This document shows, piece after piece, positions 4,136 through 27,717 of a stretch of DNA of 38,786 nucleotides. The stretch lies in the IMG/VR virus record IMGVR_UViG_3300045988_157946; one strand, written 5' to 3'. Each line of letters opens with the position of its first letter. Position 1 is the first letter of the stretch. The notes under the pieces were generated by a model. It was not told where the DNA came from and made no database searches. It saw nothing but the letters and a program-made list of their open reading frames with translations. The DNA comes from a virus. The translations under genes and the position numbers were made by a program.

Positions 4136-4170
4136 ATTATACAAAAAGAACGAGGGTGTTTGTCACACCC
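4136..4170 (-). promoter_or_regulatory. Late-promoter candidate 3 (upstream of the tail fibre gene): GGGTGTGACA-N19-TATAAT
   Basis: On the - strand GGGTGTGACA is the reverse complement of 4161..4170 and TATAAT is the reverse complement of 4136..4141, exactly 19 nt apart. The same architecture occurs at 23343..23377 and 27683..27717. Confidence 0.55.
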
Positions 4171-4173
4171 TCG
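4141..4173 (-). terminator. Rho-independent terminator after the giant ORF, overlapping the late-promoter motif
   Basis: CGAGGGTGT-GACAA-ACACCCTCG forms a 9-bp stem and is followed by TTCTTTTTGT on the - strand. Confidence 0.65.
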
Positions 4174-4180
4174 CCGTTAA

Positions 4181-7100
4181 TTATTTGAGCCAATATTTAT
4201 TTATATAATTAATAACATCCGTTCTATTACCATACAATCCTGTTTTCGTCATTATAGTAATTATCTTAGCTTTTTCATCAGCATTACCGTTAATGAATTT
4301 CGCTTTATATTGATTGGCAATAGAAGTTCTGATACCAAAAACGGCATTATCCTGCGTCATACCGTTAGCAACTTTAGCCTTAATTCTGTTATCAACATAA
4401 TTACGAATGTTCTTGGTATCGTTTGACTTAAACGCTTCAACCATTGCCTCGGTATTATAAGACGACGCTTCCCAATTTGTAAAATCCTCATCATCAAAAT
4501 AGCCTGTTGATTCAAGTTTAGTTTTAATTTGACTGCGTTTTGAATTATCCGCAGCTAAATATTCTTCCTTAAAAGCACTCTTTAATGATGATTTTATGCT
4601 TCTTTCGGCCTCTGTCTTTGTCTTGCCGTTGCTTATATCGGTTGCAATATTGCCGTCAATAACAGTTTTCAAAACCGATTTATCACCGCTGTTTAAAGCG
4701 TTTATCAAGTCAGTTTTGTTATAAAGCTTACTGTCTTTGCTATCCTGTTCCTCGTCAATCTCGACCATATCAATTGCTTTTTTGACAGTTTCCTTATCCG
4801 TTCCGCTTGATATAAGCGTTTCAAGCGATTGCTTATATTTTTTGTCGTCGCTGTCCGCCTTATATCCTGCTGCCTTTTGAATTTCGGAAGAATAGGCTTT
4901 AATTGCTTTATAGGCAATCTCGTAGTCAAAGCCGTCGCTTTCAAGCTCTTTAGCGGTATTAATTGCCGTGCCAATATCTCCGTCAAGATATGCAAGGCCT
5001 GCTGTAGCAACTCGCTCGTCATTTTCTATCAATCCCTTCTTGATATAATTATCGGGATTAGAAACATTATCGGCAATGCGCTTATACATGTCCTTGTTGC
5101 CGTCCTTAATTGCCTCATATATCATTTGTTGCTTGTCTTTTTCAGGAAATAGGTCAAGGCCAAATACAGCAAGCACATCATCAGTAAGTAAAGCCTCTTT
5201 AATTTCCGATTGTGTAGCTTCTTTTGCCATTGAAGGATTGAAACTGTTTCCATTCTTTGCACCTTTGATAACATTTTCCACGCTGTTAATATCACGAATT
5301 ACGTTTTTTATCGGCAAGCCGAAAAATGCGCCAATCGAGCCGGCAAGACTTTCAATTTTTTGTGTATAGGTAAGATTGTCACTATTCAGATTGTGAATTG
5401 AATTATACAAATCACTAAACACCGACATATCTGCCCTTGTCACATCATAGCCTTGGAATACAGATATAGCGTCTTTAAGAAAGGCTATTTGATTAACAGG
5501 GTTAGCATTGTCAATAAAATTAGGAATAAGCTCAGCAATATATTTTTCAGCATACGTTTTATCGTCATCATCATTACGTGCGGCGGTTACAATTGATTGA
5601 AGAAGAGCGTTTATAACACTTGCAATAACAAGTGAAGCAACAATTCTCGTGGCCTTTTTCTTGCTAAACTTTCCACGTTTTGCCTGAACGGTTGCATTGA
5701 AAAGCATATTAAGTGAAGTAGTCGGCTCTGCCATAAATGCAGTTGCCATTTTAACGGCGCCGTTTTTACTCCTCATTAAAGCCGAACGTGAAAATACCGA
5801 ATCATATACCTGTGTTTTTGTTATAACCTCAGTAAATCGTTCGCCGGCCTTTTGCAAACTTTCCTCTGTTGATAAATCAGGATATTTATCCTTGGTTTCC
5901 GCCTTGCAGGCATTCCAAATGTGAGACCAGGTTATTTCGTCAGCCTTTGAAGCCACATATCCAAATACCTCATCACGAAACGCTCCGTCCTTAAAAAATG
6001 CCGCAATCTTTTCCTTACCCTTATAATCAATATTATTAAGATAATCAATCGTACTTTGCGCCATGTTAGTATCAAAATATCCCATTTCCTTAATAATAGC
6101 AACAGGAGCATATTTCTTTATTTCCTCATAACTGCGCTTCGTAAATGTAGTTTTTGCGAAATATTTGGTATCAATGATTGATAACGCTCTGCCTATTGCC
6201 GACGGCTGCTGAATTGCAACGGAAGCGGAAGCAAAAACAGCATTTTTCTTGAACATACTTGTAAGTTTATCAACAATATCCGAGCCTGCTTCATGCACGA
6301 CACCGCCGTTAAGGTCCTCAAGCAAATCGCTTATATATCCTGTTGCCTTCTTACCGTATGCATTTTCCACTAAAGTTCTGATAGAACTAAACTCGTCGCC
6401 GTTGCTCGAATGATAATTATAAACCCGGTCGAAATTTTCAAGCGGTAAAGCAAAGGCATTATAGCTTGCCATTTCATCAACGTGGCTCGCCCATACGTTG
6501 TCAAATTCTTCAAGTAAAAGCGGATTTTTTGCTTTTTCAACAATCGCATTAGTAAAGCCTGAATTAATGATTTTTTTAGCGCCAATAGTTTCCATACTGC
6601 TTCTGTGCATGTAGTTTTTAGCGGTACGTGCAGGATAATAATTTTCTTCCTTAAAAAGTTCAACGTCATATAGCCGTCTTGATATCTCGTTGCCCTTTTC
6701 CGCCATATCGGTTGAAAGATATTTAACCATGTCACGAACATAATTCCTTTGTTCGTCGCTTAGCATTGACCTGATTTTTGATATATCCGAATAACTGAGC
6801 CTGTGAGTTAAACTGTCATTCCACTTTGAGCTTTTATCCTTAAGCGTTTGAATAGCACTTTTAGGCTTATCAGTCACTACAATACCGCCATGGATAATAT
6901 GATTAAGCGTTTGCTTTCGATTGCTCATTGCATATATCGCCATTATCTGTTCAAGGTTTAAATTAAGCTTGTCGCCTAATGAAGTTGTTATATCATAACG
7001 TTTCTTCCTATCCCAGCTTTTCCAATCGTATTTTTCTCTGACATCATCAGCGTAATTTTTGCTGTTGTCTATCGTAACCGCCCATGTGTCCTCACCTTTT

Positions 7101-10100
7101 CTGACATCACGGTAAAGTTTAAGCAACTCATCACTGCCAAGATATTCAAAAAAGTATTCCGGTTTCATAGAGCCGTATTTAATTGAATCAATAATACCCT
7201 TGTCTATCTTATACTTTGCATTTACTTGTTTAAGTTCTTCCTCAACCTTAGAAACACTCTGTTCGATAGTTTTATTTCTTTCGGAATAGAATATCTTATT
7301 AACATTATTGCACACTTGAACAGTTGTGCGCACAAGGTCATCCACCATTTTAAGCTCGTCAAGTGTCAATTGATTAGCATTCCTGTCACCAATCATTGTT
7401 TGCAACTGTTCAATATAGTTTTTGATATATCCGTTATATGCTTCGGTCACCTTTTCGTAATCGTCATTATTATTCAGCGATTTAAAACTGCGGTCGAGTG
7501 CATAAAGCTTTGAATATATTTTATCATCAAGCTTAGTACCAAATGATATAACATTTACTATTCCTTTGACTGCTTCGACAATATTATTAGGAATATGATT
7601 TTTCTTATCCTGCTTTGCAAGCTGTGCAAGTCTAATTGTGCTTTTTTGAAAGCTCTTATAAAGCAGACTGCGCTCACGCTTTTCTTTCTGCTTTTGCCTA
7701 TATTCAGCCTTATACTCAACTGTATCTCTATATAAGTTCGACCTATAATCTTGATTTTTCTTTATCTGCTCTTTGCGAAATTCAGAAAATTCCTTTTTAT
7801 GCTTTGCTTTTTCGTCAGCAAGCAGCTTTTGATAGTTGCTTATTTGCTGAGCATATTTCGACCTTGCTTTTAAAAAGCGCTTTTCGTTTTTATCCGCCTT
7901 GGTCTCATAAAGATTAGTCTTGAAATAATAAGAAAGAATATCATTAGCAAGGCTTTCGAGATATTCTTCCTTGCTGTAGCCGTAATCGTTTTCAATAATC
8001 TTATTTTTATAAGTATTAACCATATCAAGAAGCGCAATCGGCATATCCTGCGAATTGTCACTTGGCATTAATCCGCCAAATAATTCTTCCATTTCATTAG
8101 CCAAATCGTCAAGCGGTATACCATTTTCGGTAATGTTAATCTTTCCTCTTGCCGCATTCTTATACTTGCCGTAAGAGCCGAAATAATACGAAACCTCTTC
8201 CTTTTGCTTATCGGATAGCTTAATTTCTGTGTTCTTCAAATAATCAAGCATTTCCTGTTCTTCCTGCGTAGGCTGATACTTAATCTGCTTTTCGTTTTCA
8301 ACAAGCTTTTGTGCAAGGTCGTATGCAGCGTTAAAGAATTGCTGAGAAGTGTCGAGCGTGTGCCAGCTTTTCATTTCCTTAGCCACGTCAACGCCTGTCA
8401 TACGTGTAGGTGTAAGCTTAATGATTTTTCTTGCCGCAATTAATAACGAGTTCGTACTTACTTCCCTGCCGTTAGTAAGCTCAAATTGGTGCTTTAAGAC
8501 CTCATTGATTTCCTTAAGGTGCTTGTTTTCACGCTTAAGCTCTGCATACTCGGAATAGTCTACGTCTCGGGAGTATCTTTTTTTGCTTGTGTTATCATTA
8601 TCAGCATTTTTCCGATATCCGAATCCGTCACTTTGCCTTTCTGCTTGAAGCGTTTTTCTATTGAATGAATCAATATTTCCTGTTGTTCTTCCGTTTCTAT
8701 TGCTGCTAAGGCTTCTGCTATTGTATCTTTCGGAAGTTTCAAGTAATCCAGATAGTCTATTATCGTTTTTTGCTTTTCCGTGAACTCCATAATCATCCAA
8801 TCCCTTCAAATAATCTTCAATATTATATCTGCTGTAATATGTAATACCATTTTCATTGTATACAAAACGATATTTATAATCACCATAATTTATACTTCTT
8901 AACTCGTTAGAATATTTGTTTGCATATCTTGTTGTAATTGCACTTGATACAACAGCATATTCTTTTTTTCCAAGTCTGATTTCATTATAATCCGTATCAT
9001 CAAACTCGTCAATATTAACATCACGAGAAAATCTAACATCTTCAATTGAATTAACAACATCAAGTCGGCTCTGCTCGTTATTTGCTTTATATTCTGCATA
9101 CGAAACGCCTGCATTTTTTAATGCATTTTTCAACTTTTGACTTGCATTGTCAGGAATAACAGCAGTATATACTTCGTTAAAATAAACGGCTCTTTGCGGT
9201 TTTGCTTCAAAATAACTCGTTGGCAATGCACGAATATCATTAACGAGGGTCCAAATATCATCAACCGCCATATCACTGTAATTAGCCCAGCCTTTAAGCT
9301 CGGTTTTCAAATAATTTGCAAGCCCTGATTTTGTTTCTGTTTTTGCAACGCCGTCAACGATAATATCAGCCACAGCAAATGGGTTATCGTTTTTTGTCAT
9401 ACTTTGGGCAATTTCTTGAAATCTTTTATAAAGATTATTACGTATTTGATTGTATTCTTCATCATTAACATTTTGAAGTCGTGATTTATCATTTCTCACT
9501 TCATCAAGATTGTTATATTTCTTCGCTGAGCCACCGATTATATTGCTGACGAGAAAATTGCCACCCTGAGCATTTTGATTATTCATTGCCTTAACGATAT
9601 TTTCAAGGTTATAATCCCAATACAGACTTTCCCAATTCTTTCGATTACCGGATTCGGTAAAAGGGTCATTGCCTTTCCAAATACCCTTTTTCTCTACAAC
9701 GCCGTCAAATAAATCATTAAGCCAGCTTTCATATTCCTTTTGATTAATTTTATTATCAATAAGATTATGTGTTGCCTCATCATCTGAAACGAGTTCAACT
9801 TTTTCAGCTCCGTTTTTCAAATAATCGATAGCCTTTTTCACAAAAGCTTTTCTTTGAAACGCCGTCTTAATTTCATCCGAATTGTTGAAAATGTTATCTA
9901 TGTTCTCATCACTTATACCGGGAATTAAGGATTTATAGTAATCGGCGATTGATTGTTTTATCTTGCTATCGTATCTTTCAACCCATAATTTGCTCGGAAG
10001 CAACGGTTTGTTCTCAATTTCCTGAAGCGTATCTTTTATATTATCATTAAGAAAATCGAAAACGTCAGTATCTTCGCTTGTAAGAGTTGTTTTCTTTTCT

Positions 10101-13100
10101 CTTTGAACAATATCTCTAACCGGCTCAGACTTGTCTGCCAAATATAGCTCCTTTAAAGCATAATCATTTTTATACTTATTAACTAATTCGGCAATACTTC
10201 CTGCGCTGTCAACTTGGTCTTTGAAATTATCAGGCTGAAATAATGAAGCATTAGGCTTATATGCAAGTTTTTGCTTTACAAGATTGTTTATTTTGCTATA
10301 TAAATCCCATGCTTTCTTTTCATTAAGTTTGTGTTCGGCTTTAACTGATATCGGAGTATAAGCGTCAGAAGAATAAACCTTATTTGCATTACTTTCTTGT
10401 GGGTCAATAGTCTTTTTATCAAAAACAAGTGATATATCACCAAACTCATTATTTGCGCTGATATTTTGTGCTTTCATTATTGCTATCGACGGACTTGGTA
10501 AACCACCGAGTTCTAATGCACTGAGCAGTTTACTTTCGGTAGTATTATGAATTGCAACAAGTTCCTTTGCTTCCTCAATAGGTATATCAAGTGAAAATTT
10601 TGTTTCATTATTATTGACATTTGAAGAATTATTTGCTATATTATCTATGCGAGACAAGTCGTAACTATTATAACCTCTGGATTCTTTATCCTTTGCGTTC
10701 AGTGAGACTGTCTCGTTTTTATTTTGCAAATTCATATTATGAATATAAAACTTATTTTCAACAGGCGTTTTCTTTATTTTTATTTCAACATTATAATTTT
10801 CGCCGTCAACTATAGCAGGATGATTAAGTACCAAAAACGAACTACCCTCTTTTGAGTGGTAGTTTTTTTCATTTTCATTAACCACCTCTGCATATCTAAT
10901 CATATCTGGTAAGCTGTCAATAACAGCTATTTTTGCAGTTTTTATTTTACGTGGCAATGAAAAATATCGCTTTTCTGTAGATAATGTTTCTCTGATCCCG
11001 TTTTTAGTTATTGAAACAACAATATCCGTATCTGCATTTACAACAATATTTTTATTGTTTTGATTGAAAAAGTTATCGTTATCAAGAGTTGATATAACTC
11101 TTTTTTGAATATACACAAAATCATTAAGCGCATTTGCTGTATTTGATATGCCGAACTTTTCTAATTTCTCGTTAGAATTAATATCAACATCAGCAAATTT
11201 ACCTAGTGTCACGGAATTTTTAGTGTTTTCCTCAACCTCGGTACCGTTATAAAGATTATTGCTTGCATTATCGAGCATATCGAGAAACTGCTTGCGAATA
11301 TGGTCGGCTCTCTTTTGCTCCATTTCCATAGCGTTCCTTGCAGCCGTCTGCAAATTAGAAGTAGCAATCACACTTTTAATTTTTTCAATAACAGACTTAA
11401 GGAAATCTGCGATTGTTTCAATAATGCTTTTCTTTTCAGCTTCGGTTTTGTTGTCACTAAGCCACTTTGCAAACTGCTCAACGCCCTCATCCGTAGAAAA
11501 GAGACCCGATACAGCGTCGTTGGTAAGCTCGTCTATTGCCTCTGCTCTTGTTTTTGACCCCTCAGCCTTAGTATATGTATCGATATAAGCGTCAACAAGA
11601 GAGTTAAAATTATCTGCGCCCTTGTAGCTGACATACCAATCACGAATAGCGGCCTGCACGTTTTTGTATTCCTGCTCATTATAAGCAAGCCCAAACTCGC
11701 CAAGTTCGTGAATAAGTGCATTATACTCACCGCTACCGTCTGCATTAATGATAATTTTAGCAAGCGACGGAATAAACTGACCGTTTCCGCCCTGTCTGCC
11801 GTCGGAGTGTCTTTCAATATCCACTCTTGTTTTCCTTGCAACCTCGGTAAAGACATCATCAATCGTACTGTCACTGTCAGAAATATTCTTGTATTCACCT
11901 TCAATATGCCTTGTGGCTTTTGTAGGTGATTTTTTATTTTTTCTCTGCTCCTCAATATAAGCGTCATAGCTTTTAGCGTCTGTTTGTCCCGAACGGTAAA
12001 TATTAATCGCTTTGTCGCCGAGGAATTTAACGGCAGGATAAAAAGCCGGGTTTCTCATAACGAATTCATTAAACGGCACATCAGGCTTTGCAACGCCCAA
12101 ATCATAAAGCATTTTTGCCTGAGATACATACGTACTTACACTTGCGCCCTTTAAATTATTCGGGTCAAAATTGACATAAACGGCATTTGCCCCGGAGTTA
12201 CCGAAGTTTTTATTTATAATTTCATTTGTCAGGACCTGCTGCGTTTGATTTTTGAACGAAATATTGTTGTAATCAATGTCGCCGGCTGAGGTTTTAACCT
12301 TGAAATTACTGCGGTCGGCGCTGACCTCAAATGGGTGCTTGCCATAGATTTTTACCGCCGCTTGATTTCCGTCTGCCGTAATAGCAACAGCATTAACATT
12401 ATATTTAAGGTCGTTGCTCTGTTGTTCTGCTGTGAACGTTTCTGCAGGCTTTTGCGTATATTCCGATACGTTTGTTGTGTTTTCCTCTAAAGCGGCATTT
12501 TGAGCATTTTCTGCCCTGGGCTGATACTTGCTGTAGCCGCCATAAGTAAAGCTATAATCTGTATAGCCGTTCTTAAGCTTAGCCGACAATGCTTCAAGCG
12601 AATCGTTGCTGATATCTTTTTCAGTAAAGTCTGAGCCGAACTGTTCATTTATGGCATTAATAGCTTTTTCACTATCCTTAATCACCTTGACATCATATCG
12701 GCTCAATTCAAAGCCATTAACCATTTTGCTTATGGCCTTATTTATTCTGTCCTCGTTTTTTTCGCCCTCAATTGCCGTGGCAATGTTTTCCTTGAAGCCC
12801 TCTTTCACTATCTCTGTTTGAAGCTGTCCGAGCCTTTTTTCATTAATCTTACTGTAATCAGCTTCATCATAAATAGAAGCGCCGGCAAGTACATCACCGT
12901 TTGCTTGACTTGTCTTAACCTTTGCCTGCAATTCCTCGGCATACTTATATGCCTTACTGTTTTTATTCTTTGAAAGCCCCTCGTCTATAATCGCCTGAAT
13001 ATCGCTGTTGCTTTGTGCTTTTGCTTCTGCGCCGAGCTTTTTATTATCGATATTATTTTGTGTGCTTTCAATAATCTTGTTCGGTGCAATTTCGCTACCT

Positions 13101-14812: not shown

Positions 14813-14823
14813 AATCACACCTC

Positions 14824-16020
14824 TTATGCCAAGTCAAAATGATTAAGTAACCACTTTGCCTGTTCTTCATTAATAGTCTTTTTCTTAAGTAACCTTTCAA
14901 TTGCGTTTGTTCTGCCCTCATTGGTCCTGTTCATTCCGATATCTTGTAGCATACCGTTTGAAATACCTATATCGTCCTGTGTTTTTTCTTTATTACCGGA
15001 ATCATTTGACGAATTACTATTTCCTTTAGCAGTATAAGAATAGCCCGATTTGCCACTTGAACTTCCGCTTGACCGCCTGCCGCCTGAGCCACCGCTGCTC
15101 TTAGGTGGAGTATATTTGTATTGCTTATAAATAGCGTCTGCCTGATACTGAGTAATGTTACCTTTCTTAACCTGGGCTTTAAGATATGCTTTCATTCCTT
15201 TATTATCCTTTTTGTCCCGGTAGCTGTCCGCTTTGTCGGCAGCGATAGAAACATTAACCTCGTTCATAGACCAATATTCATCTCGCTTATTTTGTTTTGT
15301 ATCTTCCTTAAGCTGAGCCTTAAATTGTCTGCTGTTTTCTTTAAGGCTGTTATCGTTCCAATAGCGCTCACTGTTTGTTTCTGTGGCTTCATTTGCTGCG
15401 TTTTGCTCTTTCCAATATTGGTCAAGCCAAAAGTCTCTGTTATCCGTATATTGATTAATGGCATTAGCGTTCTCCTGATTCGACCTGCCTGCTGCAGCAC
15501 CGGCGATATCAGCCCAGGCATTGTTGCGGTTTACATTGCTGTTCTCAATATTTTTGAATCCCTCAATAGCTGCCTGATATGCTGCCAAATCGTTTTGTTT
15601 TTGTGCGTACCATTCTTCCTGGGATTGCTGATAAAACGCAGGCAAAGCAACGTCAACATTTGCCTGATACGCATTATCCGTTTGAGCGGCAACCTGCGGT
15701 GCGTATGTTGAGCCATATCCTGCCGTTAAATTCTCCGCCGCTTGCTGTGTCGCCGCCGTGGATAAACCGCCAAGCTGCCGATATAGCTCCGCCCACTGCT
15801 GATACGCTTTGTCATTTGCTTTGTCGTATGAGAAAGCACCTTTGTTTGCAACTCTGTTATACATTTCTTGCATTTGCTGCGCGTAATTATTAGGTGCATT
15901 ATTCGGCTGAGAATACGCCAACTGTTGAGCAGCCTCTCTCTGTCGCTTTTGCTCCTCTGTTTCGGCATAAGGAGTATTATATTGCTCGTATTTGCTTCTT
16001 GTGTTGTTTGATATAGCCAT
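14824..16020 (-). CDS. Q/N/A/Y-rich virion internal protein candidate (paralog of 16029..16886) with a Gly/Ser-rich tract
   Basis: AGGTG RBS. It shares the motif GxFSYD..D..Q....Y...G......AA..T.GY..(S/T)YA.Q.A with the upstream gene. It also contains an SSGGSGGRRSSGSSSGKSG tract. Confidence 0.6.
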   Translation of the reverse strand: MAISNNTRSKYEQYNTPYAETEEQKRQREAAQQLAYSQPNNAPNNYAQQMQEMYNRVANKGAFSYDKANDKAYQQWAELYRQLGGLSTAATQQAAENLTAGYGSTYAPQVAAQTDNAYQANVDVALPAFYQQSQEEWYAQKQNDLAAYQAAIEGFKNIENSNVNRNNAWADIAGAAAGRSNQENANAINQYTDNRDFWLDQYWKEQNAANEATETNSERYWNDNSLKENSRQFKAQLKEDTKQNKRDEYWSMNEVNVSIAADKADSYRDKKDNKGMKAYLKAQVKKGNITQYQADAIYKQYKYTPPKSSGGSGGRRSSGSSSGKSGYSYTAKGNSNSSNDSGNKEKTQDDIGISNGMLQDIGMNRTNEGRTNAIERLLKKKTINEEQAKWLLNHFDLA

Positions 16021-16028
16021 AATTACAC

Positions 16029-16886: not shown

Positions 16887-16900
16887 ATATCCTCACCGTC

Positions 16901-17113
16901 CTATATTTCATATTCCTTTGTCGTTTGGTCGCTGTATTTAACTGTAATTAAATGCGTTGTTGCAACTATATCAACTACATATTTTGCCTCGTTTGCATTA
17001 CCTCTGTTGCTGTCTATATACCTCTGCAGTTTATTAACAAGCTGCTCAATATAATTCACAACGTATGGCAAATTGCCTGTTGCGCTCATTTTACTTATAA
17101 TCGGTAATTTCAT
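16901..17113 (-). CDS. Small structural-module protein (start re-assigned to Met9, ATGA overlap with the upstream stop)
   Basis: The ATG at 17113..17111 overlaps the TGA at 17112..17110 of the 1104-aa gene, which is typical of translational coupling. Confidence 0.55.
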   Translation of the reverse strand: MKLPIISKMSATGNLPYVVNYIEQLVNKLQRYIDSNRGNANEAKYVVDIVATTHLITVKYSDQTTKEYEI

Positions 17114-20100
17114 AATTCGCCACCTATCTCTAAACATTTTGTAAGAGAGTAAATTTTACATTTGCCCTCGCCCTCAATTTTGAATTTCAAATGGTCGCAC
17201 CTGCGTGGTCTGATAGGAAATACAAAAGAATTAATTCCACGTCCTATTATTTCTTTTCCGCAGCTTTCCCATTTGCCTGAGCTGTTATATTGAATATAAA
17301 ATCTTGCCTTTGCACCCTGTGCCAAATACATTCTCAATTGAAAACGTGAAACATATTTTTGATTTGGATATGAATATCCGTAAACGCCTGTCTCGACGCT
17401 CCAATTGATTTTATCTTCAAGCACATCATAATCATTATCGGCGTCAACAATCTTCACCTGTTTGTCTGTAACGTAATAAAGCGTGTTGCCGTCATTTATA
17501 AAGCGTGATATTTTTTCTTCTGTTTCCTTAGTCCACATACCCTTTTTAGTGTCGTAACAGAAAAGCTCATATTCATTTGTTTTGACGTTTTGCATTGACA
17601 CGTAATATTTGTTGCCCCAAGCGCCTGCCACAGCGTTCTTGTATTTATCCCTGCCGAGTGCCGAGGAAATAACGGTTGTACTTCCGTCATAAGCAATAAT
17701 GCCGTAAACGCTCTTGTAATATAAAATATTATCAATAATCGCAAAGCTTCTCTCGCTGCCTTCTTCAACACCTTTAAAATTGTTTACTTCCGTATACGAA
17801 AACTCACTCGGTGCCGAACCGTACACAATATAAAGTGTATCTTCTTTGAATATAAGAATATTACCGAGATAATTTACAATTCCTGTAAATTTGCCGTCAC
17901 TTCCGACATTAGCCGCCCAACTGTCGCTGTTAAGCCCTGAAAAGTCATAATAATTAGTATAATCGCCGAGAGCCGAGGCATATATCTCGTGGCCGTCTTT
18001 TTGACACAGCCATACTCTGTTACCGCATAAACAGCCAAACGGCATAACATCAGGAAATTTCTTTTCAATGGTAATATCAAATTTCTTATCGTTATTAGTA
18101 AATCCTGTCAGCCATTCGTTTTCATTTTCTTCGTAATTAATAAGCGGTGCAGAAAAATCAATGAAATTATTACCAACCTTGTTTATTCTGTAGTTATTAG
18201 TTTTCAATTTCCTTGTTGTACTGTCATATTCAAAAAGGCCTTTTTTGAATTTAGTTAAGTCAAGTTGACAATCGTCACTAAACTTAATACTGAACTCGAC
18301 ATTATCGCCCTTACTGAATTTATCGAAGCGAGCCGCCTCATTATAATAAAAGCTTACATAACTTGATATATCGGTCCATAATGTACTGTTGTCATTAAGC
18401 TTGACTTTCTTTTGAAGCGTTCCGCTTACTATTCGATAATTGGAATTTGAATTAATGCTGTAAATATTTGCATTAAAAGTGTTTTCGTCACCGTCGCATG
18501 TGCATAAAACAGAGGATATTTTATTTTCTTTATTGACAGAAAACGTATCCTTGTATGCAATCTTGCTTACCTTGCCGCTGTCGGTATCTATAATCACTCC
18601 GTCCGGGACCACAAGTATCTTAGTACCGCACTTAATTAATGCTTTTTTCTCGCCGTAATTTGCGCTCTTAAGCGTTTTAATATTCTTAATGTTCTGAGTA
18701 TCTGCTATCGTAGAACCGCTCATTTTAACATTGGTAACAGACGGTGCTTTTTGTTGCTTGCATACCAAATCCAGATTAATTACAGAAGTGTTGAAATTAT
18801 AAACATTTTTATTTTTCATAATTTCAATGTTTTCTTTTTTTGAAAACAACTCGCCCTCTATATCAACCCAACTGTTTTCCTCACTGAGTACGCTTTTTAT
18901 GTTTGATGAAAATTCGCAAATAAGGTTATATTTAAATTGCCAGCCCCTTTTCGGCACATCATATCCGTTTGCGTCCTTTTCAATGTCTGATAAATCAACC
19001 ACATAGCTAAATTGCAACGGTGTTGTATTAGCAATAAGCTTATAATGCGGAACGGCGACATTTTCGGGCATTTTATGTTTCCACAAATTGCCTTCTTTAT
19101 AAAAAATTATTGCAAATACTATTTCAATGTCATATTTACTCTCCACATACTGTTTATTTAAAACGTAACAGCCGAATTTTCTTTCATCGGCATTATGGAT
19201 AGCACCATTTTTATCAGAATAGTAAAAAACCTGAAAGCCTTTTTTCTTTGCGAAGTCGCCTTGATATGCTTCGTAATATTCATTGACTGCCTCTTTAACA
19301 TAAGGATAAAGTTTCGTTATATTGTCGCAATAGAGCATGCCGGTTGCTTTTTCCCATTTGTTTAATAACATTTCAGAAAAATTAGCGATTTGGTCTTCGG
19401 AAAGATAATAGTCTTGATAGTCGTCAAATTGCATATAAAGCTTAGATTTGCTTACTCTGTTTTTCATATTCAAGTATTTATAATCATCATCCGTAAAAGC
19501 GTGTATCGGATTGTCAACTACCTTTTTAAGCCCGGTCACATAAAAATAATGCTGCGTTTCTACGCTTGCTTCATCATTGTATATGTCAATAATAGTCTGT
19601 GCGGCGCTCTCCCAATCTTTGAATATACCTAAATACTGAGCCTTGCCGCAACATAAAGCCTTTATATTATCTACGTTATCGCCTAAATTAAAAGCGGCGG
19701 CGTTTTGACTTACATACCACTTTTCGCCGTGTTTATCTGTATATTCTTTTATGTACGTGCAATCCTTAAACGTTTCGTTCCAATTAATCTGTTCATTGAA
19801 AAAGGCGTCGTTATAATATATTTTTATTGCACTTTCCTTTTTAGCTACGAGCATAGGAAACGTCCACGGTGCTCCGTCGTCAGTAGTGGTAATGATTGCA
19901 CCGAGGCAAATATCATTTGAGGAAATGCTGTCTTTCGTTCGGTATTCAAACCAACGTCCGTTTATATTGCATATCGGCTCTCCTCTGCCATAGAAACACC
20001 ACTTATCCTGAAACTCCTTAAGCAAATTGTTTTGATATGTAATAGTACCTTCAATATCGCTTTTGGCAAATGAATATACTGCGTTTTGTGTATCCTTTAA

Positions 20101-20424
20101 AATCTGCCCTTCAGCAGTAACTGTACTGCCCTGCTGCATTGCACAGTTTTGTAATAGAGAAACCTTGCCATTAACAATAGCGGCGTCAAAAGCGCCTCTG
20201 CGTGTTTGAATAGTTAAATCATTATTTGATATCGTGTTTTCATAATCACTCGTCACAATACCACGCTTATTTCTTACGCTTGCAACCGGGTAATCATCAA
20301 GCGTCATATTTTCCATATCATACCAAGCACCGTTTTGCGCTCGCTCGTTATGGTCCAAGCCCTTAAATTCTTCAATATTTTCTTTCGTGACGTTATACGC
20401 ATTAAGTGACTGCGGTAATTTCAT
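17110..20424 (-). CDS. Large tail protein (nozzle/hub-like; C-terminal region resembles a beta-propeller)
   Basis: 1104 aa. The C-terminal third has repeated strand-rich blades (GNRVWLC..GHEIYASALGD, GKFTGIVNYLGNILIFKEDTLYIVYG, GIIAYDGS, NKYYVSMQ, ELFCYDTKKGMWTKE). Its position is equivalent to T7 gp12. Confidence 0.55.
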   Translation of the reverse strand: MKLPQSLNAYNVTKENIEEFKGLDHNERAQNGAWYDMENMTLDDYPVASVRNKRGIVTSDYENTISNNDLTIQTRRGAFDAAIVNGKVSLLQNCAMQQGSTVTAEGQILKDTQNAVYSFAKSDIEGTITYQNNLLKEFQDKWCFYGRGEPICNINGRWFEYRTKDSISSNDICLGAIITTTDDGAPWTFPMLVAKKESAIKIYYNDAFFNEQINWNETFKDCTYIKEYTDKHGEKWYVSQNAAAFNLGDNVDNIKALCCGKAQYLGIFKDWESAAQTIIDIYNDEASVETQHYFYVTGLKKVVDNPIHAFTDDDYKYLNMKNRVSKSKLYMQFDDYQDYYLSEDQIANFSEMLLNKWEKATGMLYCDNITKLYPYVKEAVNEYYEAYQGDFAKKKGFQVFYYSDKNGAIHNADERKFGCYVLNKQYVESKYDIEIVFAIIFYKEGNLWKHKMPENVAVPHYKLIANTTPLQFSYVVDLSDIEKDANGYDVPKRGWQFKYNLICEFSSNIKSVLSEENSWVDIEGELFSKKENIEIMKNKNVYNFNTSVINLDLVCKQQKAPSVTNVKMSGSTIADTQNIKNIKTLKSANYGEKKALIKCGTKILVVPDGVIIDTDSGKVSKIAYKDTFSVNKENKISSVLCTCDGDENTFNANIYSINSNSNYRIVSGTLQKKVKLNDNSTLWTDISSYVSFYYNEAARFDKFSKGDNVEFSIKFSDDCQLDLTKFKKGLFEYDSTTRKLKTNNYRINKVGNNFIDFSAPLINYEENENEWLTGFTNNDKKFDITIEKKFPDVMPFGCLCGNRVWLCQKDGHEIYASALGDYTNYYDFSGLNSDSWAANVGSDGKFTGIVNYLGNILIFKEDTLYIVYGSAPSEFSYTEVNNFKGVEEGSERSFAIIDNILYYKSVYGIIAYDGSTTVISSALGRDKYKNAVAGAWGNKYYVSMQNVKTNEYELFCYDTKKGMWTKETEEKISRFINDGNTLYYVTDKQVKIVDADNDYDVLEDKINWSVETGVYGYSYPNQKYVSRFQLRMYLAQGAKARFYIQYNSSGKWESCGKEIIGRGINSFVFPIRPRRCDHLKFKIEGEGKCKIYSLTKCLEIGGEL

Positions 20425-20436
20425 ATTTTCACCACC

Positions 20437-20814
20437 TTATAATCTGTAGCCGTGCACACCTATAGGTCTGTGCGCTCGGTTATATGCAGCATAGAAATTG
20501 TCATAATAGCTTTGAAACATTGTCATAGCGTTATTCATTCTGTCAATTTCGCCGTTAGCATAGTGAACACTCTTTTCAAGCCAAAATCTATATAACTCGC
20601 TGTATTCGAGCGGCACTATCATTTGTGTATTAATATCTGTATCGGCTGTGTAGCCGTTAAATGCAATTTTGTCAGCGTCCTTATGTGTTTTTATAATATC
20701 GTTATAAATCTGTGCCTCTATCTCGTTTAGCCACCTTATCTTTTCCTCGTCTGAATACTGATTAGGCACTTGATTGTCAAAATAGCTTAATACCTCGCAA
20801 ATTGTAGTTTTCAT
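20437..20814 (-). CDS. Head-tail adaptor/connector candidate
   Basis: 125 aa with a GAGGTGA RBS. It lies between the head genes and the large tail protein. Assignment is by position only. Confidence 0.4.
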   Translation of the reverse strand: MKTTICEVLSYFDNQVPNQYSDEEKIRWLNEIEAQIYNDIIKTHKDADKIAFNGYTADTDINTQMIVPLEYSELYRFWLEKSVHYANGEIDRMNNAMTMFQSYYDNFYAAYNRAHRPIGVHGYRL

Positions 20815-20835
20815 ATTTCTTTCACCTCAAATAGC

Positions 20836-20863
20836 AAAGGGCAAGGATTTCTCCCTGCCCTTT
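20836..20863 (-). terminator. Strong hairpin (attenuator/terminator) after the capsid gene block
   Basis: On the - strand AAGGGCAGGGA-GAAA-TCCTTGCCCTT forms an 11-bp stem with one G-U pair. The U-tract (TGCTATTT) is weak. Confidence 0.5.
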
Positions 20864-20880
20864 AAAATTACAACAAAGAG

Positions 20881-21291
20881 TTAAAGCGTTACCTCTTTAG
20901 TTCCTTCGTTAGTTCTTATATATGAATGCTCAACCTCTCTGAGATTAAGGCTCATTTTAAGTCGGTCGGCATATTTTTTCTTGATTTTGCAAACCTTACC
21001 ACGTGGAACGAATGTTGCCACGCCGTTTACTGCAACATATTCGCCCCTTGGGTCGTCATTAGGTCCGAGATACATAGGAATTTTAATGATTTCCATTTCC
21101 TCACCCTCAGGGTTATCCTGTATAAATTCAGGCTTTTCCTGCATAGCTTCGCTTTGAGCCTTAAGCTTTTCGGCAAGAATAGCGTCAAGCTCTTCCTGTG
21201 TATATGTTTTTGCAGTTGTTTCTTTAACAACTGCAGTTTCTTCAATCGCCGCATTTTCTGCGGCTGCTTTACTTTTCGCCATAATATTCAC
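20881..21291 (-). CDS. Hypothetical head-associated protein (decoration candidate)
   Basis: 136 aa, immediately downstream of the major capsid gene. The N-terminal half is acidic and Ala-rich. Confidence 0.45.
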   Translation of the reverse strand: MNIMAKSKAAAENAAIEETAVVKETTAKTYTQEELDAILAEKLKAQSEAMQEKPEFIQDNPEGEEMEIIKIPMYLGPNDDPRGEYVAVNGVATFVPRGKVCKIKKKYADRLKMSLNLREVEHSYIRTNEGTKEVTL

Positions 21292-21310
21292 GCTCCTTTA
21301 TTAGTTAGCT

Positions 21311-22354
21311 TTAGTTAGCTTCATCATCATTTGCAAACTCTGCCGAAACAGTCTCGATGCTGAGAAGTCGTGTAGGATAAAGCACAGCAGAAGCGGTAGA
21401 AAACTTAAAGCCTACCGAGCCTCTCTGTCCAAGTGGGTCTTCTGGGCCGCCTGAGCCGACCTGCTTAACAATCATCTTAAGACTTGCACCGTCAGGCTTA
21501 ACAACGCCCCAAGCGTCCTTACCGAAAACAAGAGTTGAATATACGCTGTAGCCTACCGGGCAATTATCGGTATACACCTTAGCATTATCGCTTTCAACGA
21601 AACGTACGCCGTGAAGCTCACCGATTTCGCCGTTAAAGATTTCTTTTGTTGCAGAATACTTATGTGCTTCCTTCCAACCGTCGCTATCCCTTAAATCGAA
21701 AGAAACAGACGGATGAATAATACCGATATATGAGCCGTTGATTTTAGGTGCTTTATTCTTCTTAAGAATTGCAACAGCTTTATTGATAACTCTCGGTGTG
21801 AGCTGACAAGTTTTATCGAGTTTATCACGTGAAGCAACTGCCGTGCCGTCGCTCTTACGTGGGAAAAGTACATTCTTAACAGCCTCAGTCATAACAGAGT
21901 TACGTGTAACAATATCCATTGTTTGTGCCGCAAGGTCGCCAAATAATTCTGTAGCGCCGCCGATTACATCATCAAGGTGTGTAAGACTAAGTACATCTGT
22001 TACATAAGCATAACGGCCATACTGATTAATTTCCGCTTCAATGCTTGTCTGTCCGAGCTTGTCACCTGTAGGTGTAATACCTTCCTGAAGCGGAACAGTT
22101 GAAACGGTAAATGTATTCCATTTACGCCACTCTACCTTCTTACCACTGTGCTTTGGCAATGGCTGCTGTTTTCCAAACTGTGCAAAATATGTTTGACTAC
22201 CCACATTTTGGAGTAAAGCTGTGTCATAAAAGATTTTCATACCCGGTGACAAATCGCTGTCGCTGGTTGTGTTAAGTACATCGTCGGCAAAAAGCTGTGC
22301 GCTGTATTTCTTTGCGCTGATACTTGCGCTTTTTAATGATTTAATAATATTCAT
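21311..22354 (-). CDS. Major capsid protein with a cleavable N-terminal propeptide
   Basis: 347 aa with an AAAGGGAG RBS, directly after the scaffold gene. N-terminus ..KKYSAQLF^ADD (22283..22297). The HK97-fold assignment rests on context and my recollection of similar capsid sequences. Confidence 0.75.
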   Translation of the reverse strand: MNIIKSLKSASISAKKYSAQLFADDVLNTTSDSDLSPGMKIFYDTALLQNVGSQTYFAQFGKQQPLPKHSGKKVEWRKWNTFTVSTVPLQEGITPTGDKLGQTSIEAEINQYGRYAYVTDVLSLTHLDDVIGGATELFGDLAAQTMDIVTRNSVMTEAVKNVLFPRKSDGTAVASRDKLDKTCQLTPRVINKAVAILKKNKAPKINGSYIGIIHPSVSFDLRDSDGWKEAHKYSATKEIFNGEIGELHGVRFVESDNAKVYTDNCPVGYSVYSTLVFGKDAWGVVKPDGASLKMIVKQVGSGGPEDPLGQRGSVGFKFSTASAVLYPTRLLSIETVSAEFANDDEAN

Positions 22355-22393: not shown

Positions 22394-23272
22394 TTATTTT
22401 GACAAATATTTCATAAAATTATTTTCGTCAATTATTTCGCCCATACTTGCAGCGTTCATTAATTCTTTGATTTGCTTTTGATTTAACTTATCAAAAGACA
22501 TTCCGCTGTAATTAGTGGCCTGCTGCTGTGACGTTCCGTTTTCAATCGGACGGTTAGCATTAGCCCTCATTGTGTCGGCGATATCCTGTCGGCTTTGATT
22601 GTATGCGTAGCCCATAGCAGCGCCCTTAAGCTCTTCTCTGTGAACAAACTCATAAGCGTCCTTAACGCTCATACCTTTGTTAAGCCAATTACGAAATTCA
22701 TCATTACTGCTTTCCTGCTCAAAATCGAAATTTGGATAATATTCCTTAAGAGCTTCAGCTTCATTAACCCAAGCGTTATATTGATTCTGAAAAGCTGCTC
22801 TTTGAGCGTCCTGCTGCTGTCTGATTTCATCTTGCCTGATGATTCTCTCAGCCTGCATAAGCTCCTTAGCCTGCTCAACCGTAACGCCTCTCTCGGTTGC
22901 GATTTCTTCATAAATCGAATTGTCGTTGTCGATAGCCGATACAATTGAATCAATATCCGTCGAATCTTTAATTCCGTATTTAGCGGCGAATTTTTCAAGT
23001 GCCGGGGTAAGCTTGTTTCTGAAATCTATACCCTCTTGAATTTGCGCATTTGCTTTGCTCATACGCTTGTTAAGCGCCTTATCAAATTTAGCTTGATAAT
23101 CTTGCTTGTATCTGCCCTTGATTAAATCGTCAAAGCTTTCTTCCTTAGCGTCTTGTGTGCCTGTCGCACCGTCAACATTGGTATCAACCGTACCTTCAGC
23201 CGTTGTACCTACTCCGTCAGCTCCTGCAGTAGCCGCACCGTCGGCAAATAACTGAATATGATATTTCTGCAT
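22394..23272 (-). CDS. Scaffolding protein
   Basis: 292 aa, acidic, helical and Q-rich, between the protease and the capsid gene. The N-terminus MQKYHIQLF^ADG (23240..23254) carries the same motif as the capsid protein. Confidence 0.6.
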   Translation of the reverse strand: MQKYHIQLFADGAATAGADGVGTTAEGTVDTNVDGATGTQDAKEESFDDLIKGRYKQDYQAKFDKALNKRMSKANAQIQEGIDFRNKLTPALEKFAAKYGIKDSTDIDSIVSAIDNDNSIYEEIATERGVTVEQAKELMQAERIIRQDEIRQQQDAQRAAFQNQYNAWVNEAEALKEYYPNFDFEQESSNDEFRNWLNKGMSVKDAYEFVHREELKGAAMGYAYNQSRQDIADTMRANANRPIENGTSQQQATNYSGMSFDKLNQKQIKELMNAASMGEIIDENNFMKYLSK

Positions 23273-23285: not shown

Positions 23286-23328
23286 GCTGATTAAGTCAGC
23301 GAATCTGTAATCTGTGGGTTAAGCCCAC
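23286..23328 (-). promoter_or_regulatory. Two 15-nt stem-loops with identical CUUAA loops in the scaffold 5' UTR
   Basis: On the - strand GTGGG-CTTAA-CCCAC (23314..23328) and GCTGA-CTTAA-TCAGC (23286..23300) lie 13 nt apart. The second abuts the AGGGAG RBS. Confidence 0.5.
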
Positions 23329-23342
23329 GGCTCTTTATCCTC

Positions 23343-23377
23343 ATTATACCTAAGGGCGTTATTTCAATGTCACACCC
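23343..23377 (-). promoter_or_regulatory. Late-promoter candidate 2 (upstream of the scaffold gene): GGGTGTGACA-N19-TATAAT
   Basis: GGGTGTGACA is the reverse complement of 23368..23377 and directly follows the Prp stop codon. TATAAT is the reverse complement of 23343..23348. The spacer is exactly 19 nt. Confidence 0.55.
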
Positions 23378-23698
23378 TCAAAATAACTTTTTTACATTTT
23401 TTTCAAACTCTTCCGAAAGCCAGCCAACACCCTGCTTTACCGTTTCAAAATTGCTTGCAATTTCTTTATAATATCGCTTTTTCGGATAAGCACATATAAG
23501 CGCATATCCGTCCTCAACAATAATAAGTGCCGGTATTTTCAGTTTGTTTTCGTTTTCTTCAAGCGTTTTCGCAAGAGCAACAATAAGTGTAGAAACACCG
23601 GCGCAAGCTATGTCCTTGCCTTTTTCGGCATATCTGCAATGTCCCTCAGCCTTTAATTCAAAGCCGTTTCTTGTCTTACTGTATGTAATCTCAACCAT
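23378..23698 (-). CDS. prp: Prp-like cysteine protease (ribosomal-processing protease family); candidate prohead protease
   Basis: 106 aa. The His-Cys dyad context EGHCRYAEKGKDIACAGVSTL matches the GH...DIVCAAVS signature of Prp/DUF464 as I recall it. Confidence 0.7.
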   Translation of the reverse strand: MVEITYSKTRNGFELKAEGHCRYAEKGKDIACAGVSTLIVALAKTLEENENKLKIPALIIVEDGYALICAYPKKRYYKEIASNFETVKQGVGWLSEEFEKNVKKLF

Positions 23699-23712
23699 TA
23701 TTCTTTACTCTC

Positions 23713-25755: not shown

Positions 25756-25767
25756 TTTGTCTGCTCC

Positions 25768-27180
25768 TTAATAAATCTTAATTCCGTAGTTGTTCATACT
25801 ACTTCTGTATTCGCCACGCTGATTAAGTGGGTCGTCAGCAAGTTCCTTAATCGGCTTACTCTTTATCGGCTTAATCGGCAGCTTGTTACACATATATCTG
25901 ATTTCATCTGCAATATGGTCCTCGCCGTCTGTGTCAAGGTCCTCAACCTTGTGTTCGTCATATTGAAGCGTCGGCAATGTACGAATTGTATTTTTACACG
26001 TGTTGAATATATACATTCTCGGCTTGCCGTTAGCAGCAAAAGTGAATCTATAATGAACCTGCTGCCAACCGGCAATTCTGTTGTTATCGCCCTTTTGGAA
26101 ATAAACACCGTTTCTTGCCGCCACGTCATAAATACTGATACCTGTTGTTTTTTGCCATATTGCCGGGTCGGCAATCCCGATTATGTTCTTACCCTTAAGC
26201 CACCTATGCGTTGTTTCAATTTCCTTTACTCTTTGAAAAACTTGCTGAGGGTCCCACTGCAAGCCCTCGTTTGCTTCGTTCTTTACGCAACCATATAATT
26301 CCATTATCCTGTACAGCACACCGTCATAGTCTACAGCCCACCAACCGACTGAAAAAGGTTTATGATAACCCCAGTCGAAAGAGCGATATATGGTCCAATT
26401 CGGCGGAATTTCAAACGGCTCTATCACGTGAGTATATAAGCCTGTGGCCTGCTGCTCTTTTGTGCCAACTCTAAAATCCTCAAAGAACATTCCCTCTGCA
26501 ACATCCCACAAGCCGTAAAGAAACATTCTCTTTTGCTTTTCAGGTAGATTTTCAAGCTGTTGCAAATACTCAGGCTGTTTTGCCATAAGCGCAATATTAT
26601 CCGTCACAAGTGCTTGAATAAACGAATAATCTTCCGGGTTTTCGTCAGGCATATAATCTTTATCGATAAAGATTCGCTTAAAATAGTGATGTGACGCTCC
26701 GCCGGGGTTAGTAGTGAAGTATATTCTTTTGGGAAATTCATTTGCACCACGCATACAAAGTCCTATAGTTTTAATTTGGTATTCTGTTAAATGCGTTGCT
26801 TCGTCAATGAAAATAACATCAAATTCCGTACCTTGAAAGCGGTCGAGGTCAGCGTCATTGCGGCAGTACATAAACTGAATTGTGCTTCCGTTCGGAAAAT
26901 AAAATATCTTTTCCTTATCAACATATTTTGCAATCTTATACAAAATATTTCTCATTTCACGAATGTGGTTATTCATAAGTTCAGGATAAGTTTGTCGAAC
27001 GATTAACACCTTTATTCCTGCATAAAATACGGCAAGCAGAATAGCTTTAACTCTTACAAACCAACTCTTTCCACCGCCACGTGCGCCACCGTAACCGATA
27101 TATTTGTGCTTATCTTCTAAGGCGAGCTTTTGCTTTGGATTCACTTTCGAAAAATCGAGGTCAAGTGTTACTGCGCCCAT
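25768..27180 (-). CDS. terL: Terminase large subunit
   Basis: Walker A YGGARGGGKSW and Walker B VIFIDEATH. The C-terminal nuclease-like region has DTDGEDHIADEIRY. Confidence 0.9.
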   Translation of the reverse strand: MGAVTLDLDFSKVNPKQKLALEDKHKYIGYGGARGGGKSWFVRVKAILLAVFYAGIKVLIVRQTYPELMNNHIREMRNILYKIAKYVDKEKIFYFPNGSTIQFMYCRNDADLDRFQGTEFDVIFIDEATHLTEYQIKTIGLCMRGANEFPKRIYFTTNPGGASHHYFKRIFIDKDYMPDENPEDYSFIQALVTDNIALMAKQPEYLQQLENLPEKQKRMFLYGLWDVAEGMFFEDFRVGTKEQQATGLYTHVIEPFEIPPNWTIYRSFDWGYHKPFSVGWWAVDYDGVLYRIMELYGCVKNEANEGLQWDPQQVFQRVKEIETTHRWLKGKNIIGIADPAIWQKTTGISIYDVAARNGVYFQKGDNNRIAGWQQVHYRFTFAANGKPRMYIFNTCKNTIRTLPTLQYDEHKVEDLDTDGEDHIADEIRYMCNKLPIKPIKSKPIKELADDPLNQRGEYRSSMNNYGIKIY

Positions 27181-27665
27181 TCTTTTTTACCCTCTATTAT
27201 CTTAATTTCAACGTTCTTTTTATCCTCATCCTCTGTCAAATCATTAAGCTGTTTTATAGTGTCATTCATGGTGGAAATGGTGCTTGCAAAATCCTTTAAC
27301 GCTCTTGTGTCAAGCTTTTTAGTAATTCTTACCGATTCAGCTCCACTTGATGTTCTGAGTATTTGCCGGTATAGCTGCTCCGGGTCGTCTAACGCTTCAT
27401 TTAATTTAACTGCAAGCTTGTCCGCCGCCTCAATTAAATTATTAAGCTTTTGCGATTTATTCTTAATATCAGTCGCGCGTGCGTTTTGTAAAGTGGCCTG
27501 CGCCACATTTGACCTATATTTATCACGTTTTTTTACCCAATTTTGCTTTTTTCCTACCGCCGATACCCTCGACGGCGCTATTTTGTGCTTGTTTGCAAGT
27601 GCTCTGTAAGACATTTCACCGCATACATATTCATTTTCAAGCTCTTTCCAGTCGACTTTGCTCAC
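27168..27665 (-). CDS. terS: Terminase small subunit
   Basis: 165 aa with a GTG start and an AGAGGTGA RBS. It has an N-terminal HTH-like segment (SYRALANKHKIAPSRVSAVGKKQNW) and overlaps the terL start. Confidence 0.7.
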   Translation of the reverse strand: MSKVDWKELENEYVCGEMSYRALANKHKIAPSRVSAVGKKQNWVKKRDKYRSNVAQATLQNARATDIKNKSQKLNNLIEAADKLAVKLNEALDDPEQLYRQILRTSSGAESVRITKKLDTRALKDFASTISTMNDTIKQLNDLTEDEDKKNVEIKIIEGKKEWAQ

Positions 27666-27682
27666 GTTCTCACCTCTTATTT

Positions 27683-27717
27683 ACCTTATCATTTCAAAAC
27701 ACTTTAATGTCACACCC
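27683..27717 (-). promoter_or_regulatory. Late-promoter candidate 1 (upstream of terS): GGGTGTGACA-N19-TAAGGT
   Basis: GGGTGTGACA is the reverse complement of 27708..27717. TGATAAGGT is a -10-like element whose TAAGGT is the reverse complement of 27683..27688. The spacer is 19 nt. Confidence 0.5.

Follow-up and report, generated by a model that had tools for sequence, protein, structure and literature searches.

A 10-nt box 19 nt upstream of the −10 element marks three candidate late promoters of a prophage

How might a prophage switch on several separate late gene blocks together? The question is raised by a 10-mer, GGGTGTGACA (hereafter the box), in the gut Clostridia prophage of IMG/VR record IMGVR_UViG_3300045988_157946, whose whole 38,786-nt sequence we refer to as the window. 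Copies of the box lie in front of terS, the gene for the terminase small subunit, in front of a putative scaffold gene and in front of the tail fibre gene, and each is followed at the same distance by a −10 hexamer. We read these three sites as late promoters that depend on a phage-specified factor, and give this reading a probability of roughly 0.55. The elements of the sites are as follows.

27708..27717, minus strand: box 1, GGGTGTGACA, an exact match, in the −41 to −32 region of the proposed terS late promoter.
27683..27688, minus strand: −10 hexamer TAAGGT of the predicted terS promoter, with TGA directly before it.
23368..23377, minus strand: box 2, GGGTGTGACA, starting straight after the TGA stop codon of a Prp-like gene.
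23343..23348, minus strand: −10 hexamer TATAAT of the predicted scaffold-gene promoter, from sequence reading.
4161..4170, minus strand: box 3, GGGTGTGACA, whose sequence also forms the 5′ arm and the loop in the terminator of a gene encoding 3545 amino acids (aa).
4136..4141, minus strand: −10 hexamer TATAAT of the predicted fibre-gene promoter, from sequence reading.

A scan of both strands with up to one mismatch returned these three copies of the box and no others, all exact and all on the minus strand. Together with a reading of the sequence, it confirmed the original prediction, which had listed the three sites and, by eye, no other copy, each site with a gap of exactly 19 nt (N19) to the −10 hexamer. 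The copies are also, as had been claimed, all intergenic, on the coding strand of the late genes and at the heads of late gene blocks. Intergenic sequence makes up 5.3% of the window, and although 304 different 10-mers are present at least three times (against about 126 in first-order Markov simulations), GGGTGTGACA is the sole one with every copy intergenic. Three copies were reached in 2 of 100 shuffles, the expected number being 0.60. No further copy with up to two mismatches has TAnnnT at N19 in the window. Over the whole IMG/VR collection the box followed by N19-TATAAT gave 27 matches, 26 of them within the present phage lineage, and a literature search for the 10-mer returned unrelated primer sequences only.

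The three hexamers all satisfy the −10 form TAnnnT. At site 1 the hexamer is an extended −10, TGnTAAGGT, with TG at −15/−14 (TGATAAGGT); sites 2 and 3 have no TG extension, carry the consensus TATAAT, and have the 12-nt sequence GAGGGTGTGACA in common. A TG found only at the weak hexamer is the pattern expected if regions 2 and 3 of sigma-A read these −10 elements. The 3′ half of the box, GTGACA, matches the −35 consensus TTGACA at five of six positions at all three sites. The spacing of 19 nt, which recurs in the relatives L017 and L057, falls outside the 16–18 nt that are canonical for sigma-70/sigma-A, and the late sites were not listed by a sigma-70 consensus scan with 16–18 nt spacers. 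The early promoter of the window, before a cro-like gene, is canonical (TTGACT-17-TATATT with TG). These comparisons support the earlier remark that 19 nt is too long for sigma-70 acting unaided.

Among relatives in IMG/VR, 17 loci encode TerS proteins 72–99% identical to that of the window, and each holds at least one exact copy of the box. In L017 and L057 (TerS 72% and portal 77% identical to the window), the terS site reads AGGGTGTGACAT-N18-TAAGGT and the scaffold-gene site AGGGTGTGACAT-N18-TATTAT, both with the N19 spacing from box to hexamer kept as in the window. Their terS site also retains the TG extension, as TGcTAAGGT (TGCTAAGGT), at the same 19-nt spacing. Spacer identity to the window is only 11/19 and 10/19 (53–58%), whereas the box is 100% conserved. 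Since the box, the spacing and the −10 hexamer are kept while the spacers diverge, the former are under selection and the spacer is not. This supports the suggestion in the original prediction that the 10-mer is more likely the target of a phage activator or an alternative sigma factor.

Conservation extends to the individual sites. Box 1 is conserved in every relative with an exact site 1, L017 and L057 among them, and box 2 in L017, L057 and about 20 IMG/VR contigs. The intergenic region of site 3 is wholly identical in eight relatives, all of them close, including those whose upstream gene has a different 3′ end. For the L017 lineage no third site was found among the matches listed for the 14-base pattern AGGGTGTGACA-N19-TANNNT, most of which are contigs outside the lineage-specific searches.

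More distant relatives carry boxes of their own. L053 (MT835607.1, from human faeces), whose TerL is 58% identical to that of the window, is visibly more GC-rich and lacks GGGTGTGACA. It has instead GCGTGGGGTGAA, in exactly three copies, all on the coding strand and each followed after N18 by a −10-like hexamer (TAYRMT). The hexamer is TATGCT at the terS site, TACGAT at the scaffold-gene site and TACACT at a third site, which precedes a collagen-like fibre gene. Because that fibre gene stands behind a giant tail gene, a terminator and an opposite-strand open reading frame (ORF), a promoter is required there. L055 has the same box and spacing as L053 before terS, with an unrelated spacer. The absence of the motif at homologous positions in relatives had been named beforehand as evidence that would count against the proposal; the box is in fact kept in L017 and L057, and L053 has its own box in place of it.

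To this we can add 80 loci from Clostridia genomes, retrieved by TerL alignment, the alignment of a cysteine-rich protein described below being too divergent for a genome scan. Their hosts, by the names of the metagenome-assembled genomes (MAGs), include Oscillospiraceae, Faecousia, Acutalibacteraceae and Lachnospiraceae, and the closest genome match is a Eubacterium sp. MAG, at 94%. Boxes in other lineages were sought by direct comparison of the regions upstream of terS and of the scaffold gene, exhaustive listings of shared k-mers being too noisy. At least six further lineages have their own recurrent box at a fixed spacing to TAnnnT before both genes. Boxes of these other lineages are given here with their spacing.

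L073, L121 and L104: box TACCCTACCG(A/C)-N17.
L102: box GGTGGGTTAGAA-N18.
L137: box GGTTAGA-N19.
L136: box GGATAGAG-N19, three copies.
L067: box GTGTGCAAAG-N15.

Many other loci show, ahead of terS, a terminator and then a G-rich box with a −10. Given that other lineages have their own boxes, the motif of the window is one instance of a widespread architecture in which the −35-region element is lineage-specific, and as far as these sequences indicate the promoter code is lineage-specific rather than general.

Individual loci add detail. In L136, a Faecousia MAG prophage, GGATAGAG-N19-TAnnnT occurs at 6747, 9483 and 13716, one copy being 2.7 kb upstream of terS. In L129, a tRNA-like sequence (GGTGGGTTCGATTCCCAAC) at about 6812..7200 separates a GGGATAGA box from the scaffold gene; the spacing from box to −10 is inconsistent with that at the terS site of the same locus. 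In L088 (8982..9500) and L100 (710..1054), a MazF/PemK-like toxin gene is directly followed by a G-rich box and terS, and phage early genes are missing from the surroundings; such loci may be prophage edges or defective, late-gene-only elements.

From the anatomy of the sites, its conservation and the analogous architecture in other lineages, we infer both promoter activity and factor dependence. The three late promoters would stay silent until a phage-specified factor is present. Each would use a sigma-A-type −10, the weak TAAGGT helped by its TG extension and the consensus TATAAT without one, and the normal −35 would be replaced by GGGTGTGACA at about −41 to −32. The GTGACA half of the box resembles a −35 yet would lie 2 nt too far upstream (19 rather than 17 nt), and the GGGT half is equally conserved. 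A protein of the early/middle operon would recognise the box and recruit or re-target the host RNA polymerase, for example via sigma region 4, so that three units would be switched on jointly: packaging (terS onward), head (scaffold onward) and the fibre/lysis block. Factor-dependent promoters are favoured because the structural genes of a prophage must stay silent, GTGACA is too far upstream and GGGT is conserved.

Which protein could supply this function? The likeliest factor would be a cysteine-rich protein of 78 aa, whose gene is followed by one more gene, a terminator and promoter 1.

28211..28447, minus strand: candidate cognate factor, 78 aa, isoelectric point (pI) 9.2, with conserved C12, C30, C57 and C66.
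28461..29222, minus strand: 253-aa protein, directly upstream of the cysteine-rich ORF, matching PHROG 3584 'replication initiation protein', with an HUH-like HFHIF motif.
27770..28201: 143-aa ORF with a hydrophobic N-terminus, between the cysteine-rich ORF and the terminator.
27734..27759, minus strand: intrinsic terminator ending the early/middle operon, 16 nt upstream of box 1, with an 11-bp stem (6 GC pairs) and a T-tract.

The original prediction had seen no obvious sigma-like or RinA/ArpU-like gene, and hidden Markov model (HMM) scans of 20 early-region ORFs with Pfam, PHROGs and NCBIfam agreed, finding no homologue of sigma, RinA, ArpU, LtrA-C or Ogr. Homologues of the 78-aa ORF are equally placed upstream of the terS promoter in L017 and L057 (62% identity) and in L053 (31%), with the four cysteines invariant, and the cysteine-rich protein of L055 is a diverged member of the same family. 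A profile search recovered 676 cluster representatives at E <= 0.001, of which the best 150 are all short, mostly about 70–90 aa. The family signature is CPF[YW]...I.CEG...YC.S...C, over about 75 aa. No model for the family was found in Pfam (searched with the ORF and 75 relatives), PHROG or NCBIfam.

An AlphaFold2 model built on a 76-sequence alignment, with a predicted local distance difference test score (pLDDT) of 88, has three strands, three main helices and one short helix at the N-terminus; a model from an 8-sequence alignment (pLDDT 50) was unusable. Foldseek gave no PDB fold match at E <= 0.001, and the sole match in BFVD at that threshold is an uncharacterised phage protein. Searches by tblastn with the 143-aa ORF, the 78-aa ORF and family member P0026 gave no match among GenBank phages.

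Of 66 assessable TerL-related loci, 28 have the cysteine-rich gene no more than 900 nt upstream of terS and 8 others have it elsewhere in the locus; in L136, for instance, it is found at 3398..3634, about 6 kb upstream of terS. No other non-structural gene occurs in as many related loci. Among 11 other non-structural proteins of the window that were tested, the 253-aa protein is the only one to reach beyond the immediate lineage to that of L053. By BLAST it is present in 11 loci, all of which also have the cysteine-rich gene; it was considered as a possible partner of the cysteine-rich protein and set aside, and it has no Pfam match. The 143-aa ORF was also considered as the activator and rejected, having a hydrophobic N-terminal segment and no homologue outside the lineage of the window and L057.

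The candidate named in the original prediction, 28211..28447, has gained by its presence in more related loci than any other non-structural gene and by its position beside the terS promoter in many of them, whereas its link to the box is one of gene order. Its identification as the late-promoter factor is tentative, and on balance the odds are against it. Equally doubtful, if possible, is the broader proposal that the four-cysteine family is a new class of phage late-transcription specificity factor, which would read a lineage-specific −35-region box and re-target sigma-A RNA polymerase.

Several observations weigh against this account. With GTGACA at 5/6 of a −35 and a perfect TATAAT at two of the sites, some unaided sigma-A activity is possible. 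Box 3 serves also as the 5′ arm of a terminator.

4175..4149, minus strand: intrinsic terminator of the 3545-aa gene, holding box 3; hairpin GGCGAGGGTGTGACAAACACCCTCGTT then T-tract CTTTTTGT, 11 pairs, 6 of them GC.

Box 2 is able to pair with a downstream ACRCCC, and the overlaps of boxes 2 and 3 with hairpins may reflect a compact design or an additional role at the RNA level. The predicted start sites at sites 1 and 3 leave about 0–3 nt between the 5′ end and the Shine-Dalgarno sequence. With respect to the factor, L088, L097, L077 and L083 have G-rich boxes, yet the flanking sequence retrieved for them (up to 10 kb) holds no cysteine-rich homologue. Since terS lies at an apparent prophage edge in some of these loci (L088, L077 and L083 among them), the absence is not conclusive there, and the gene could be at the other end of the prophage. 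Finally, the cysteine-rich protein has no recognisable DNA-binding fold, and the median pI of its family is only 8.2.

In an unlikely rival account, an alternative sigma factor, either that of the host or an unrecognised one of the phage, would read the box as its −35 element, with no activator acting alongside sigma-A. The box does occupy the −35 region, and many lineages have in common a G-run followed by nTnA(C/G)A about 17–20 nt from the −10, which could reflect a single conserved recognition domain; the G-rich boxes in loci that lack the cysteine-rich gene also fit this view. However, models of sigma-70 regions 2 and 4 match no early-region protein. The −10 elements have the classic sigma-A form, and a TG present only with the weak hexamer points to a sigma factor with a region 3. 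Moreover, the box differs sharply between lineages whose hosts, by MAG name, belong to related Clostridia groups.

It is improbable that these are ordinary sigma-A promoters which work unaided despite a suboptimal 19-nt spacer, with GGGT kept through recent common descent only. The match of GTGACA to the −35 (5/6) and of TATAAT to the −10 (6/6), and the fact that most relatives are more than 90% identical, speak for this explanation. It accounts poorly for L017 and L057, where the full 10-mer and N19 persist among neighbouring bases that are 53–58% identical, and for the boxes of other lineages, such as TACCCTACCGA and GGATAGAG, which are little like a −35. The hexamer of site 1 reaches only 3/6, and constitutive promoters before structural genes would fire in the lysogen.

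The sites could, thirdly, be something other than promoters: parts of terminators or hairpins, recombination boundaries, or repressor operators of a 'stoperator' kind. We consider this very improbable. In its favour, box 3 forms one arm of a terminator, a downstream ACRCCC offers a pairing partner for box 2, and the identity of the site-3 intergenic region despite differing ends of the upstream gene suggests a recombination junction. Site 1, on the other hand, has no complementary arm; the immunity region 35632..35794, in which operators of the repressor have to be sought, contains no copy with up to two mismatches; and the fixed spacing to TAnnnT in more than eight lineages is left unexplained. 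A chance coincidence of three copies, conceivable in a compositionally biased window where 304 different 10-mers reach at least three copies, is effectively refuted by GGGTGTGACA alone of these being wholly intergenic, by the single strand and common N19 −10 of all its copies, by its conservation in relatives and by the analogous architecture in distant ones.

Late promoters dependent on a phage-specified factor, the reading we prefer, can be set beside known systems. Late activators of the Ltr superfamily (RinA, ArpU, LtrA, LtrB and LtrC) act at the terS promoters of temperate phages that infect Gram-positive bacteria (PMC3152322, PMC3753634), and they bind three direct repeats of 7 nt ahead of a single late promoter (PMC3753634). 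In both cases the replication module ends with a small regulator gene (in the window a candidate), after which come a terminator, an activator-dependent promoter (here a predicted one) and terS; the order in the window is the cysteine-rich ORF 28211..28447, the 143-aa ORF, the terminator 27759..27734, the box and terS. Ltr activators are likewise lineage-specific and do not cross-react, and the genes controlled are those of packaging, morphogenesis and lysis. In contrast to the Ltr systems, the window gave no match to RinA, ArpU, sigma70_r4 (LtrA), DUF1492 (LtrB) or LtrC, and it has one 10-nt box in the −35 region, at three separate promoters. By eye, the 104-nt intergenic region 27666..27769 contains one terminator and one box, and no triple direct repeat. 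Lacking both a homologous protein and three 7-nt repeats, the system of the window does not belong to the Ltr superfamily.

The C-dependent late promoters of Mu are described as having a recognisable −10 and no typical −35 (PMC2582627). In Mu, as in P2/P4 with Ogr/Delta, several late promoters per genome share an activator site, and the three predicted promoters of the window would be alike in this. With about 72 aa and four cysteines, the small zinc protein Ogr is similar in size and cysteine number to our candidate. The sites of Mu C and Ogr are dyads, that of Ogr being TGT-N12-ACA centred near −55, whereas the box is asymmetric, at −41 to −32 and 19 nt from the −10. Unlike Ogr, the cysteine-rich ORF and its 75 relatives match no Pfam family and there is no PDB fold match; the hosts of Mu and P2/P4, moreover, are Gram-negative.

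The closest mechanistic analogy is with the middle promoters of T4, which combine a MotA box with a sigma-70 −10 and are read through sigma appropriation by MotA/AsiA. There a host-type −10 is kept, as in the window, and a phage-specific box, read by a phage protein, takes the place of the −35. The MotA box, however, is AT-rich and centred at −30, two phage proteins are needed, and no homology was detected here. In lambda, the cII-dependent promoters PRE, PI and PaQ similarly share, within one phage, an activator motif that overlaps a poor −35. That motif is a direct repeat, TTGC-N6-TTGC, bound by a helix-turn-helix (HTH) protein, and the promoters serve lysogeny rather than late genes.

The wider organisation of the window frames these sites. 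A perfect direct repeat of 44 nt bounds it (1..44 and 38743..38786) and terminates in GGTTCGAATCCCCACATC, which is similar to the T-arm and 3′ end of a tRNA; ARAGORN found no intact tRNA inside the window. With a repeat that resembles a tRNA 3′ end at both borders, the window looks like a complete prophage inserted in a tRNA gene. A megablast search with 8.5 kb gave no match among GenBank phages. The remaining genes, in order from the recombinase side, are these.

35795..38580, plus strand: recombinase-side module, including a 358-aa ORF at 37504..38580.
Within this module, plus strand: 145-aa ORF, a putative cI-like repressor, read from sequence.
Next in order, minus strand: cro-like HTH gene.
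Following the cro-like gene: replication module with a Phg_2220_C domain protein, SSB and a C5 DNA methylase.
27168..27665, minus strand: terS, first gene after promoter 1; PHROG 1206 terminase small subunit, E = 8e-29.
23378..23698, minus strand: Prp-type cysteine protease gene, between portal and scaffold; Pfam Peptidase_Prp, E = 3e-14.
22394..23272, minus strand: putative scaffold gene, downstream of promoter 2, so assigned in the original prediction; it lies upstream of the capsid gene.
4181..14818, minus strand: 3545-aa ORF, between the tail genes and the fibre gene.
3079..4116, minus strand: tail fibre gene with BppU_N and collagen repeats, downstream of promoter 3; PHROG 10972, E = 3e-144; Pfam BppU_N and Collagen.

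Past box 1 the order is thus terS, terL, portal and Prp, then box 2; past box 2 it is scaffold, capsid, tail genes, the 3545-aa ORF and the terminator that holds box 3; the lysis genes come after the fibre gene. The Prp gene is retained at the portal–scaffold position in many relatives, and a Prp-type protease of the phage's own implies N-terminal processing of head proteins. Homologues of the putative scaffold gene were found by tblastn at the equivalent position in relatives. The counterpart of the 3545-aa ORF in L053 has 2685 aa (13404..21461).

Some features of the window concern other subjects. Between the head and tail modules, at 20815..20880 on the minus strand, lies a terminator-like hairpin (AAAGGGCAGGGAGAAATCCTTGCCCTTT) with a T-rich tail; no box promoter follows it, so that transcription of the tail genes would depend on read-through or antitermination. 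Two small minus-strand ORFs, 33267..33452 and 30999..31271, are otherwise unrelated and share the peptide RL(P/S)VAVADSA(V/A)EL, which in the 61-aa ORF is followed by an HTH-like stretch. The peptide may have been left behind by recombination or may be a DNA-binding module common to both ORFs.

The 5′ untranslated region of the scaffold gene contains a further structured element.

23328..23314 and 23300..23286 (within 23286..23328), minus strand: two 5-bp hairpins with CTTAA loops.

In its general form this leader motif consists of one to three small hairpins, in each of which a stem of 4–5 bp closes a loop (A)CTTA(A/C)(C); the 3′ flank is (C)AGA, immediately ahead of the ribosome-binding site. 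It is also seen in L088, L100, L062, L063, L065, L068, L082, L095, L105, L110 and L116. The stems covary between lineages (GTGGG/CCCAC, GCTGA/TCAGC, GCCC/GGGC, GTCC/GGAC, GTTC/GAAC), and a strict pattern places the motif at the scaffold position in 13 of 61 related loci, at about nine times its background density. Rfam returned nothing relevant, either for the window at the gathering threshold or for the scaffold leader at an E-value threshold. The hairpins may be a binding or processing site for some factor.

Good descriptions of the late-gene switch exist for staphylococcal, enterococcal, lactococcal and enterobacterial phages. We know of no such description for the very abundant prophages of gut Clostridia, and literature searches found none. 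The present analysis offers an explicit promoter grammar, in which a lineage-specific box is followed after 17–20 nt by TAnnnT before the terS, scaffold and fibre genes, and, as a concrete candidate for the regulator, a protein family without known relatives. If the family does read these boxes, a co-evolving code of box and factor would extend across gut Clostridia prophages, with Oscillospiraceae, Lachnospiraceae and Eubacterium-like hosts. If confirmed, the grammar would make late operons predictable in metagenomic phage genomes and would provide orthogonal promoter/activator pairs for engineering gut Firmicutes. It would also help to explain the timing of induction, packaging and lysis in the prophages of gut Clostridia.

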